Made by a program: the position numbers
Assembly (NCBI RefSeq): GCF_041248615.1
Contig: NZ_CP158427.1
Source: Escherichia coli
Lineage (GTDB): Bacteria; Pseudomonadota; Gammaproteobacteria; Enterobacterales; Enterobacteriaceae
Length of the DNA stretch: 64,000 nt
Strand: one strand, 5' to 3'
In this document: positions 57,001 through 60,000 of the stretch, in pieces
Position numbering within the stretch: the stretch's first letter is position 1
How the letters are laid out: every line of letters starts with the position of its first letter

Positions 57001-60000
57001 TTTTTTAGAGGAGAGAATTTTTTATCCATGCATACATTTTACTTCTCTGCATTAATGTCTGCAATATGTTACTTTATTGATGATAATTATTATTCAATAT
57101 CCGATAAGATAAAAAGGAGAGCATATGAGAACTCTGACTCTAAATGAGTCAGACCGGAGATATCCACTTTAGACTGAGATGCGTCAGAGGAACCCAGATA
57201 AATAGTGTCATCACCAGTACCGGTACCGGTACCGGTACTCACAGCCCCGCTGTATTTGCCGCCACTGAGGAATACCTTTTCTTGATTCTTTACGGTGGTA
57301 CGTAAGTACTCCATTTTCGTACAGGCTCTCTTCCGCTTCCTCGTCGATTCGCTCACTACGTTCGGTCATCGATTTGCGGCGAGCAGTGCCACCTTTCGCA
57401 TATCATTGACGATCCCGATTTGAGCCAGAGAGCTGAGGTCTAATGGAGCGGAATCGTACGAGAGTGAATCAATTGTATGATATATAAATATTCTAATTGG
57501 TATAGAAAATGCTATTTAAAATATTTTTTATCTAAAAACGACATTTAACGGACAGTTTTGTCTGGTAATCGATTTTTCCGACGTTTATTTTTTTGCTAAC
57601 TGTACGTTTTCGTATGGTTAGCCCCCTGTCCCCATCTACCGAGTGGAAGTTCTGGGTACACGCTCGTAAGCGGCATATGTTGGTGACATATACGTAGTAA
57701 TGACAAGGTGATAAATGGCACAGGTTAATACGCGTTTAAGAATCGACGCTGAACTGAAGGATGCTTTTATGGCCGTTGTAAAAGCATGGGCCGTAGCGGC
57801 TCTTAATTAATCCGGAAATAAGTGATCTATAAGGCACTGTTGCAAAGTTAGCGATGAGGCAGCCTTTTGTCTTATTCAAAGGCCTTACATTTCAAAAACT
57901 CTGCTTACCAGGCGCATTTCGCCCAGGGGATCACCATAATAAAATGCTGAGGCCTGGCCTTTGCGTAGTGCACGCATCACCTCAATACCTTTGATGGTGG
58001 CGTAAGCCGTCTTCATGGATTTAAATCCCAGCGTGGCGTTGATTATCCGTTTCAGTTTGCCATGATCGCATTCAATCACGTTGTTCCGGTACTTAATCTG
58101 TCGGTGTTCAACGTCAGACGGGCACCGGCCTTCGCGTTTGAGCAGAGCAAGCGCGCGACCATAGGCGGGCGCTTTATCCGTGTTGATGAATCGTGGGATC
58201 TGCCACTTCTTCACGTTGTTGAGGATTTTACCCAGAAACCGGTATGCAGCTTTGCTGTTACGACGGGAGGAGAGATAAAAATCGACAGTGCGGCCCCGGC
58301 TGTCGACGGCCCGGTACAGATACGCCCAGCGGCCATTGACCTTCACGTAGGTTTCATCCATGTGCCACGGGCAAAGATCGGAAGGGTTACGCCAGTACCA
58401 GCGCAGCCGTTTTTCCATTTCAGGCGCATAACGCTGAACCCAGCGGTAAATCGTGGAGTGATCGACATTCACTCCGCGTTCAGCCAGCATCTCCTGCAGC
58501 TCACGGTAACTGATGCCGTATTTGCAGTACCAGCGTACGGCCCACAGAATGATGTCACGCTGAAAATGCCGGCCTTTGAATGGGTTCATGTGCAGCTCCA
58601 TCAGCAAAAGGGGATGATAAGTTTATCACCACCGACTATTTGCAACAGTGCCAACACGGGCACCACTACGGAGTTACCGAACTGCCTGTACGACTGAGTG
58701 TCTGACACAGGAATGCGAAAAGGCCTGCCATCTACTTTTTCAAAACCCATAAGGCGCGCGCACTCTCGTGGAGTCAGCCTGCGGGGCCGATGCGCCTGAT
58801 TTTCTTCGTTCGCGAAGTCTGTTTCACCTGTGGCCATATCCCAGCCACGGTCTATCAGAATTTCAGACCCGTCTTTGTGATAGCGAGCAGAAAGCGTACG
58901 GGCAATGCTTTCTTTATTTTCAGGATTAACGAGGCCAAAACCGAATCCGTTACCCTTAGCTGCGTGCTTTTTGGCGTAGTTATAGAGATACTCCCAGAGT
59001 TTCGGCGTCAGTATATATTTGCTGTCAACCACGGGTTCCAGCAGTTCGCCAAATGACGGACGCTGTTCCGGATAAAAACGACTAATATCGCGCAGGGTAA
59101 AGCCCTGGTGAATGTTCAGATCACGACGGAAACCGACCAAAACGATACGTTCTCGGTGCTGAGGTAAAAAGTGCTTTCCGTCGATAACTTTAGGATCGTT
59201 TTTGCCCATCTCAGCTGCATCCGCAACTTCATAGCCCAGTTCGTCGAGGGTATCCATGATGACTTTAAAGGTTTTACCCTTGTCATGGCTCTTCAGGTTT
59301 TTAACGTTTTCAAGAACAAAGATGGCAGGTTTTTTTGCGCGTATAATACGCGCCACATCGAAGAAAAGCGTTCCCTGAGCCTCACATTCGAAACCATGCG
59401 CGCGCCCGAGCGAGTTTTTCTTGCTTACGCCCGCAAGGCTGAACGGTTGACAGGGGAAACCTGCTAGAAGTACATCATGATCCGGCACATGCTCATTAAT
59501 GTAAGCATAGGCATCGTTTTCAGGTACTTCAGGTTTATCACTGAGCGTGACTTCCCGAATATCGAGATTGAAAGTGTGTTCCTGAGCATCGTTAAACCAG
59601 TTAGCTTTATATGTGCGCACAGCCTCTTTATTCCATTCACTGGTAAAAACGCACTGGCCACCGATGGTTTCGAAGCCCTTCCGTATACCTCCAATCCCAG
59701 CAAACAGGTCAATAAACCGGAAGGCATAGTCAGGGTGATGTGCAGGCGCTTCCGGAAGCATTTTTCGTAGAAGTTCCTCTTCGGCTAACGTCAGCGTCTT
59801 AGGTGAGCACTTACCATTAATCCAGCGATTAAGAGTCTCGCGACTCCACTCATTTTTACCAACTTTTCTAAGCAGTTCAGCCACGTACTTCTGGTCATAG
59901 ATTTCCAGCACCTGCCCGAGCAGCTTTTTATAATTTTCCTGTCGCAGTTGTTCTTCCGCTTCTGCTTTCTCAAGCAGATCCTGCGCCAGTAATTCAAATT

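Follow-up and report, generated by a model that had tools for sequence, protein, structure and literature searches.

An IS26 without a target duplication of its own raises the question of which DNA was joined or lost at its position. Such an element is located in the 64-kb window analysed here, i.e. the whole stretch of DNA under study, which is the reverse complement of positions 24651-88650 of record NZ_LT599826.1 (plasmid p14408_1 of Escherichia coli NRZ14408). The initial annotation described a decayed antitoxin-like ORF on the left of the element and the 3' end of dcm on its right, and supposed that the sequence once present between them had been lost or rearranged by IS26-mediated recombination. 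The features of the locus are listed in Table 1.

Table 1. Features at and around the junction IS26, in window positions
Feature	Position	Strand	Remark
F-plasmid backbone of p14408_1 (tra region, RepFII replicon, cvi-like gene)	1..57832		ends at IS26 IRR
yacA antitoxin remnant, promoter region and first 102 nt	57688..57815	+	91% DNA identity to yacA
ATCTATAA, half of 8-bp target-site duplication	57825..57832		F backbone; other half at record 101496-101503
Complete IS26, variant IS26-v1 (Tnp26 G184N)	57833..58652	-	copy 2 of the 6 in p14408_1
IRR, 14-bp inverted repeat, distal to tnp26 start	57833..57846		left end of IS26 in the window
tnp26, intact 234-aa DDE transposase with N184	57885..58589	-	ORF; RefSeq WP_001067858.1
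IRL, 14-bp inverted repeat, tnp26-proximal	58639..58652		right end of IS26 in the window; adjoins truncated ecoRIIM
AACACGGG (CCCGTGTT on the opposite strand), IS26 target octamer within ecoRIIM	58653..58660		p14408_2 86703-86710
3'-truncated EcoRII-type cytosine methylase gene, ecoRIIM	58653..60007	-	cut by IS26
IncN-derived block, part within the window	58653..64000		BLAST of p14408_1 against p14408_2, annotation

Identity of the junction IS26

The junction element is an ordinary, complete IS26. Its length was exactly 820 bp, starting with GGCACTGTTGCAAA and ending with the reverse complement thereof, so that both 14-bp terminal inverted repeats are perfect. With up to one mismatch allowed, this 14-mer was found twice in the window, namely at the two ends of the IS26, while 0.08 matches were expected by chance. 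IS26 copies annotated in at least 5000 PLSDB plasmids were 100% identical to it over 820 bp. The tnp26 product scored 278 bits against the IS6 equivalog NCBIfam NF033587 (cutoff 125) and covered the full profile. At IS positions 379/459/613/614 the element has the haplotype CAAA. Positions 459, 613 and 614 are differences from canonical IS26 copies and residue 184 is N, which identifies the element as IS26-v1, a variant that by definition departs from IS26 at three nucleotides, with two of these changes causing G184N (PMC9412624). In PMC9019673, Pong et al. 2019 are cited for a higher cointegration frequency with IS26-v1.

Flanking octamers

The 8-bp flanks of the junction IS26, ATCTATAA and AACACGGG, agreed at 2 of 8 positions, and re-reading of both showed no target duplication around the element itself. 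Cointegrate formation or an intramolecular event normally leaves IS26 without an own duplication (PMC4471558), and published accounts describe which flank patterns copy-in, cis and trans reactions should produce (PMC4471558, PMC7986276). The initial annotation chose the right class of mechanism when it took the missing duplication as the mark of an IS26-mediated recombination junction. It also anticipated further IS26 copies on the replicon; p14408_1 has six copies in all, the other five lying outside the window, and p14408_2, the co-resident IncN KPC-2 plasmid, has three.

The search for matching octamers in trans that had been proposed there was carried out and located the left-flank ATCTATAA a second time, adjoining the IRL of IS26 copy 5 outside the window. 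The junction IS26 (copy 2) reads CCCGTGTT-IRL...IRR-TTATAGAT, and copy 5 reads TTATAGAT-IRL...IRR-GGATTGAA. The duplication is present outside both boundary IS26 copies; these copies are now inverted relative to each other, and their direct orientation exists only in the inferred structure before an inversion. A partner of CCCGTGTT/AACACGGG was found beside none of the six IS26 copies of p14408_1 and none of the three of p14408_2, as expected if the partner was deleted.

Origin of the left flank

The F part of p14408_1 is that of an IncFIA/FIB/FII adhesin plasmid. In plasmid pLWY6J-2 the site of the left flank is free of IS26 and has a single ATCTATAA. When the left flank was joined to record position 101504 onward, the resulting sequence was identical to pLWY6J-2 with 0 mismatches, and the exact match extended over 1244 bp on the left side and 1555 bp on the right. 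The continuation consists of IS200C and afa genes, in pLWY6J-2 as well as beside copy 5. Because the true continuation of the left flank is preserved intact beside copy 5, in inverted orientation and at a distance of about 70 kb, the supposition that a toxin gene or other left-side DNA was lost at the junction IS26 had to be abandoned.

The decayed antitoxin-like ORF was confirmed as a remnant of yacA, in which a 1-bp deletion causes a frameshift and leaves a 31-aa ORF at 57715-57810. The remnant had no match in NCBIfam, and the locus has neither an intact 89-aa antitoxin nor a yacB toxin gene. The homology to yacA stops 17 bp short of IS26, and the identical remnant is present in the IS26-free pLWY6J-2. 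Thus the decay of yacA is older than the IS26, which caused neither the decay of the antitoxin nor the loss of the toxin gene.

pLWY6J-2 was also considered as the source of IS26-v1 and rejected. It has five IS26 transposase genes, each of them annotated as canonical WP_001067855.1, and the plasmid is thus usable only as a reference for the empty site.

Upstream of the yacA remnant, 534 bp separate it from a cvaC remnant. This stretch was not assigned by tests for RNAs or Xer sites. Rfam showed no known RNA in it, the sole match within 54000-61000 being CopA at 54960-55050, outside the stretch, and the best match to a XerC/XerD core, as in a cer-like site, covered just 14 of 22 positions.

Origin of the right flank

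The gene called dcm in the initial annotation is indeed of the dcm type and lacks its 3' end, yet it is ecoRIIM of an IncN plasmid and not the chromosomal dcm. The truncated product scored 907 bits against NCBIfam NF007772 (cutoff 710; profile positions 2-444 of 472) and 373 bits against TIGR00675, i.e. it belongs to the EcoRII/Dcm-type DNA cytosine-5 methyltransferases. In p14408_1 the gene has kept 451 of 477 codons and lost 79 bp (26 codons and the stop) at the 3' end; the reading frame extends 17 codons into IS26, to 58601, which adds an IS26-encoded tail of 17 aa. The cut corresponds to position 86710 of p14408_2, where ecoRIIM is free of IS26 and intact, as is the adjacent endonuclease gene ecoRIIR. 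With the methylase truncated and ecoRIIR absent, p14408_1 does not have a complete restriction-modification system.

BLAST of the two plasmids showed that p14408_1 carries positions 46424-86710 of p14408_2 (40.3 kb) in two blocks. The block that starts at the junction and runs on beyond the window, where blaKPC-2 is located, is p14408_2 50564-86710 and corresponds to p14408_1 131039-137186 plus 1-29998. The other, p14408_1 97348-101495, is the reverse complement of p14408_2 46424-50571. The two overlap by the 8 bp at p14408_2 50564-50571, which is the inverted duplication beside IS26 copies 4 and 6. The remaining 47.9 kb of p14408_2 are absent from p14408_1; they hold ecoRIIR, the IncN replicon, stb, the genes for relaxase and coupling protein, ars genes and qnrB2.

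As judged from these alignments, the flanks of the junction IS26 stem from two plasmids, one from the F backbone and the other from p14408_2 (IncN), and were never neighbours. The junction is the seam at which an F-type plasmid took up a 40-kb carbapenem-resistance (KPC-2) block of IncN origin. This disagrees with a loss of DNA between formerly adjacent flanks. What stands of that claim is the loss of the 79-bp methylase 3' end at this site, which was accompanied by that of ecoRIIR.

Proposed reconstruction of the fusion

Copies 2, 3, 4 and 6 of p14408_1 share the haplotype CAAA, while the IncN copies of p14408_2 have AGGG. Copy 5 has CGGG and is composed of CAAA (IS positions 1-400) joined to AGGG (401-820). 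The region of the IS26 upstream of mph(A) was 100% identical over 1701 bp in four other IncN plasmids, which indicates that AGGG is ancestral there.

That the F and the IncN plasmid were fused by IS26 and the IncN backbone was subsequently lost is, in our view, nearly certain. With the same high confidence we regard the junction IS26 as the surviving junction copy of a fusion between the two plasmids co-resident in NRZ14408. For the individual events we favor, with moderate confidence, a pathway of three steps, i.e. a copy-in cointegrate, a deletion by recombination between IS26 copies and an inversion. In the first step IS26-v1 would have fused ATCTATAA of the F plasmid with CCCGTGTT in ecoRIIM by replicative copy-in transposition, giving a cointegrate of about 185 kb in which both junctions were occupied by IS26-v1; the donor IS26-v1 could have been on either plasmid, the final sequence being the same. 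Homologous recombination of the other junction IS26-v1 with the directly repeated IS26 upstream of mph(A) (L106I variant) would then have deleted the 47.9 kb of IncN backbone. A crossover between IS positions 379 and 459 would have produced the hybrid copy 5 and a 41.1-kb island bounded by IS26 and flanked by the 8-bp duplication. In the last step an intramolecular in trans transposition of copy 4 into IS6100 would have given rise to copy 6 and inverted about 33 kb, so that 70 kb now separate one half of the ATCTATAA duplication from the other and the IS26 copies next to them face in opposite directions. An end-to-end alignment of p14408_1 with the simulated product of the three steps gave 99.991% identity. 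The mismatches were 12 single-base changes, all confined to a single patch of 250 bp in which the deposited p14408_1 and p14408_2 differ as well. Neither junction was found outside p14408_1 among 72,556 PLSDB plasmids, 5,426 complete E. coli genomes and a metagenome collection. Intermediates were missing as well, be it the cointegrate, an F relative carrying IS26 at ATCTATAA or an IncN relative in which IS26 occupies the same position of ecoRIIM.

The choice of pathway leans mainly on one SNP at IS position 379, and the three-step model needs a crossover inside an 80-bp stretch of the 820-bp IS, with a prior of ~10%. The same flanks are predicted if the IncN IS26 upstream of mph(A) transposed in cis into ecoRIIM and released a circle (IS26 plus p14408_2 47244-86710), which was then inserted next to an existing IS26-v1 at ATCTATAA by the targeted conservative reaction of Tnp26. 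This translocatable-unit mechanism has been described (PMC7986276). It accounts for TTATAGAT outside both boundary copies, for CCCGTGTT at the IRL of the junction IS26 without a partner and for a junction IS26 that is pure IS26-v1 as observed. Copy 5 should be AGGG, however, so that the CGGG seen requires an extra point change or a short gene conversion at position 379, and entry of the circle by RecA recombination should have given AAAA at the junction IS26, which was not seen. We consider this route unlikely. Slightly less probable still is a course in which the IncN IS26 upstream of mph(A) formed the cointegrate by placing a copy of itself in ATCTATAA of an F plasmid free of IS26, after which the junction copy on the RepFII side deleted the IncN backbone by intramolecular transposition in cis into ecoRIIM. 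Cis deletion by IS26 leaves no duplication (PMC4471558) and the flanks come out the same; moreover, no earlier IS26 is required at either site, which fits the IS26-free pLWY6J-2. But both junction copies should then be AGGG, and with CAAA in copy 2 (4 of 4 markers differ) and CGGG in copy 5 two separate gene conversions are needed. Gene conversion among the six IS26 copies could have blurred the haplotypes.

Two further explanations carry very little weight. IS26 repeats and a second plasmid with the same 40 kb in one strain are a classic cause of misassembly, and the F and IncN plasmids might have been misjoined on that account. Yet collapsed repeats are unable to create the junction of IS26 with ecoRIIM, because p14408_2 has no IS26 at position 86710, and the hybrid IS26 makes coherent biology together with the reciprocal 8-bp signatures and the exact reconstruction in three steps; an artefact is thus highly improbable. 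The least probable of all is a local IS26 deletion on one ancestral replicon between the antitoxin remnant and dcm, toxin gene included. The non-matching flanks and the truncation of both neighbouring genes would agree with it. Against it stand the seamless run of the left flank into IS200C and afa genes, the identity of the right flank with the co-resident p14408_2 and the yacA remnant, which ends ahead of IS26 and exists without it.

Comparison with known systems

Because every step is standard IS26 behaviour, the locus represents known biology in a published plasmid and no new mechanism. With the events described by He et al. 2015 (mBio, PMC4471558) it shares IS26 copies without own duplications and matching octamers beside different copies, an unresolved or partly resolved cointegrate, an intramolecular in trans inversion with an inverted duplication (here at copies 4 and 6, within IS6100) and a gene left incomplete by a deletion (here ecoRIIM). 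p14408_1 adds to this an internal record in the form of copy 5, a hybrid between two natural IS26 variants, which suggests that the cointegrate was resolved by homologous recombination with a non-cognate IS26.

Yao et al. 2023 (PMC10790570) reported IncN[pMLST15]::IncF cointegrates with NTE_KPC-Y, such as CP104951, which represent the same IncN KPC-2 lineage, a fusion with F and the same cassette; p14408_2 (LT599827) is listed there as pEC14408-2-KPC2. These cointegrates of 195 and 217 kb keep the IncN replicon. p14408_1, in contrast, has kept 40.3 kb of IncN DNA, with orphan IncN mating-pair genes and the entry-exclusion gene eexN, and lost the IncN replicon, the relaxase gene and ecoRIIR. 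The KPC-2 cassette thus resides on a plasmid whose replication depends on F-type replicons alone. According to Yao et al. 2023 (PMC10790570), NTE_KPC-Y is non-mobile and always coupled to an IncN plasmid.

The seam shows blaKPC-2 and about ten other resistance genes leaving a broad-host-range IncN plasmid and settling, in one clinical E. coli strain, on an F-type plasmid with adhesin and fimbrial genes. In NRZ14408 blaKPC-2 is thus present twice, once on each of two replicons, and for plasmid epidemiology this means that typing of KPC-2 by replicon can mislead. Tentatively, the junction and the hybrid copy 5 may be read as a natural record of a copy-in cointegrate made by the more active IS26-v1, which was resolved at a different IS26 and thereby moved NTE_KPC-Y to an F-type adhesin plasmid without the IncN replicon. 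The genome of the strain was reportedly published by Falgenhauer et al. in 2017 (AAC 61:e02359-16), and the transfer of NTE_KPC-Y to F is new only if that paper did not describe it. In the text of PMC12900256, Falgenhauer et al. 2017 are cited only for similarity among IncN plasmids.

The reconstructed island before the inversion resembles an IS26 pseudo-compound transposon (PMC7986276) in its 41.1 kb bounded by two direct IS26 copies and in the 8-bp flanking duplication. In p14408_1, unlike in the latter, the boundary copies are now mutually inverted and the island is split, so that it is no longer mobile as a unit. A further difference is that it holds half a conjugative plasmid backbone and not just resistance genes.

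IS26 copy 2 and its left flank

Copy 2, the IS26 at 57833-58652, is 820 bp long, with GGCACTGTTGCAAA at its start and the reverse complement of GGCACTGTTGCAAA at its end. This 14-mer had two matches in the window at up to one mismatch, both being the ends of copy 2, while 0.08 were expected by chance. At least 5000 PLSDB plasmids carry an annotated IS26 that is 100% identical to the element, whose transposase scored 278 bits against the NCBIfam IS6-family equivalog (cutoff 125). The 8-bp flanks, ATCTATAA on the left and AACACGGG on the right, are identical at 2 of 8 positions, which confirms the initial annotation of a complete IS26 with 14-bp repeats and non-matching flanks.

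A 2.8-kb query spanning copy 2 had a full-length match in one record only, NZ_LT599826.1, the F-type plasmid p14408_1 of E. coli NRZ14408 (137,186 bp, IncFIA/FIB/FII), which reportedly belongs to the genome published by Falgenhauer et al. in 2017. The window corresponds to record 24651-88650 in reverse complement (record position = 88651 - window position). The expectation of further IS26 copies on the replicon was borne out: p14408_1 holds six complete copies, none with a self-flanking duplication. The proposed search for matching 8-bp flanks in trans paired the left-flank octamer of copy 2 with the opposite end (IRL, the tnp26-proximal repeat) of copy 5, which lies ~70 kb from copy 2 and is inverted relative to it. 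In silico rejoining of the window's left flank to record 101504 onward, with a single ATCTATAA kept, gave a sequence without mismatches to the relative pLWY6J-2 (NZ_MW808987.1), with exact identity extending 1244 bp leftward and 1555 bp rightward. There pLWY6J-2 lacks IS26 and has the gene order RepFII, cvi-like gene, IS200C and afa genes. Judged from this comparison, no DNA is lost on the left side of copy 2.

The initial annotation had further inferred a loss at this point of DNA between an antitoxin remnant and dcm, toxin gene included. This is unsupported, as the flanks come from different plasmids. The yacA homology (91% over the promoter and first 102 nt, frameshifted) stops 17 bp short of IS26, and the identical remnant is present in pLWY6J-2 at the site without IS26.

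Coordinates of features in the window and of IS26 copies in p14408_1 (window positions unless marked as record, NZ_LT599826.1)
Feature	Position	Strand	Remarks
ISEc12	~31760-34062 (record 54589-56891)		IS21-family (istA, istB)
CopA antisense RNA, IncFII replicon	54960-55050	-	Rfam RF00042, 106 bits
repA	55123-55992		CopA upstream
cvi-like colicin V immunity gene and cvaC remnant	56911-57170		immunity gene intact, 78 aa, ~90% identical to Cvi
534-bp region	57154-57687		
Central ~210-bp element	57432-57642		
Copy 2	57833-58652		CCCGTGTT-IRL...IRR-TTATAGAT (IS orientation)
Copy 2 transposase	57885-58589	-	intact, 234 aa
IS1-like transposase fragment	60112-60378		IncN-derived side
IS903-like transposase	61037-62005		transposase of a complete IS5-family element, IncN-derived side
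Copy 4	record 96528-97347		
Copy 5	record 100676-101495		TTATAGAT-IRL...IRR-GGATTGAA (IS orientation)
Copy 6	record 130219-131038		

Origin of the right flank

The methylase gene to the right of copy 2 is ecoRIIM of IncN plasmids. The same strain contains p14408_2 (NZ_LT599827.1), an 88-kb IncN KPC-2 plasmid with intact ecoRIIM and ecoRIIR, neither of which holds IS26. BLAST of plasmid against plasmid showed that p14408_1 131039-137186 plus 1-29998 equals p14408_2 50564-86710, and that 97348-101495 equals the reverse complement of 46424-50571. Jointly the two blocks are a continuous 40,287 bp of p14408_2. The segment starts with an IS26 upstream of mph(A), continues with IS6100, chrA, sul1, arr-3, catB3, blaOXA-1, aac(6')-Ib-cr, aac(3)-IId, blaTEM-1 and blaKPC-2, and ends with IncN mating-pair genes, korA and kikA into ecoRIIM, where it breaks off 79 bp before the stop codon. 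Of the 477 methylase residues, 451 remain after truncation, followed by 17 residues encoded by IS26. The other 47,909 bp of p14408_2 (ecoRIIR, IncN replicon, stb and ars genes, qnrB2, relaxase and coupling-protein genes) are absent from p14408_1. The IS1-like fragment and the IS903-like element in 60112-62005 lie at the same place in p14408_2 and thus predate the transfer. A misassembly of p14408_1 is unlikely: p14408_2 lacks the IS26-ecoRIIM junction, which repeat collapse could therefore not have generated.

IS26 haplotypes and proposed pathway

The nine IS26 copies of both plasmids vary at positions 379, 459, 613 and 614. Copies 2, 3, 4 and 6 are CAAA (Tnp26 N184), i.e. IS26-v1 as defined in PMC9412624. 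Two p14408_2 copies, one upstream of mph(A) at 46424 and one at 60392, are AGGG (L106I), as is copy 1, which p14408_1 acquired as part of the IncN block. CGGG represents canonical IS26 in the p14408_2 copy at 26255 and a hybrid in copy 5. The positional counterpart of copy 5 is the AGGG copy upstream of mph(A), which with its flanks is 100% identical in four other IncN plasmids of the lineage; AGGG is therefore ancestral there. Copy 5 corresponds exactly to positions 1-400 of IS26-v1 followed by 401-820 of the IncN copy and, by its sequence, is a recombinant.

The 8 bp at p14408_2 50564-50571, inside IS6100, are present in both IncN-derived blocks, which overlap there. Next to the IRR of copy 4 this octamer reads GCCATGGG, and the IRL of copy 6 is bordered by the same octamer in reverse complement. 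IS6100 was split by a second IS26 event, and the ~33 kb between copies 4 and 6, including the mph(A) module, afa, RepFIB and fimbrial genes, are inverted. As a result of the inversion, each half of the ATCTATAA duplication now borders an IS26 copy, and these two copies point in opposite directions.

We consider the following three-step pathway probable. IS26-v1 copy-in would join ATCTATAA of the F plasmid to CCCGTGTT in ecoRIIM, producing a ~185 kb cointegrate with IS26-v1 at both junctions; a donor IS26 on either plasmid would yield the identical final sequence. Homologous recombination of the far junction copy with the directly repeated IS26 upstream of mph(A), crossing over between IS positions 379 and 459, would then delete 47.9 kb of IncN backbone and leave a 41.1-kb IS26-bounded island with the ATCTATAA duplication on its flanks. 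Finally, copy 4 would transpose into IS6100, giving rise to copy 6 and the inversion. A translocatable-unit route, or one via the targeted-conservative reaction, appears improbable, since it predicts AGGG in copy 5 and needs an extra gene conversion. Had the IncN IS26 copied into the F plasmid, AGGG would be expected at both junctions; this scenario would require extra gene-conversion events and is less credible still. Discrimination among these pathways depends largely on one SNP. The initial annotation was right on the class of mechanism (deletion, cointegrate formation, recombination between IS26 copies).

For an in silico assembly of the three-step product, p14408_2 and the F-derived parts of p14408_1 served as source sequences. 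The product aligned end to end with p14408_1 (137,187 vs 137,186 bp) at 99.991% identity; the two sequences differed solely by one mismatch and 11 single-base indels, all in one 250-bp patch (NZ_LT599826.1 18518-18768 vs NZ_LT599827.1 ~75229-75480); the 36-kb IncN block is otherwise identical between the plasmids. The patch falls in a type IV secretion gene, annotated as shorter in p14408_2. It is probably a local sequencing error in one assembly; gene conversion is an alternative that we do not prefer.

Distribution and neighbouring features

Both junctions were found in no record other than p14408_1 among 72,556 plasmids, 5,426 complete E. coli genomes and metagenome contigs. Thus the rearrangement is private to strain NRZ14408, and it is probably recent. 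The underlying biology is standard IS26 behaviour. Of modest interest is that p14408_1 carries the KPC-2 cassette NTE_KPC-Y without an IncN replicon, whereas according to a 2023 survey this cassette is always coupled to the IncN plasmid (PMC10790570).

The cvi-like gene, named 'colicin transporter' in RefSeq, is followed by a cvaC remnant of the first 8 codons (MRTLTLNE), then unrelated sequence and a stop; it is an orphan immunity gene without toxin. The adjoining 534-bp region occurs in full length only in p14408_1 and pLWY6J-2. It matched no Rfam family, and its best XerCD core candidate (14/22) was not convincing. Its central part shares 73-78% identity with an intergenic element without annotation in ~1,500 PLSDB plasmids, mostly small and mobilizable, where it lies near Exc2 lipoprotein or RelE/ParE loci.

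ISEc12 sits between trbA and traF of the F tra region and may impair F-type conjugation of p14408_1. Mating-pair genes and eexN are kept in the IncN block, from which the IncN relaxase and coupling-protein genes are missing. With CopA upstream of repA, the RepFII replicon beside the junction looks intact.
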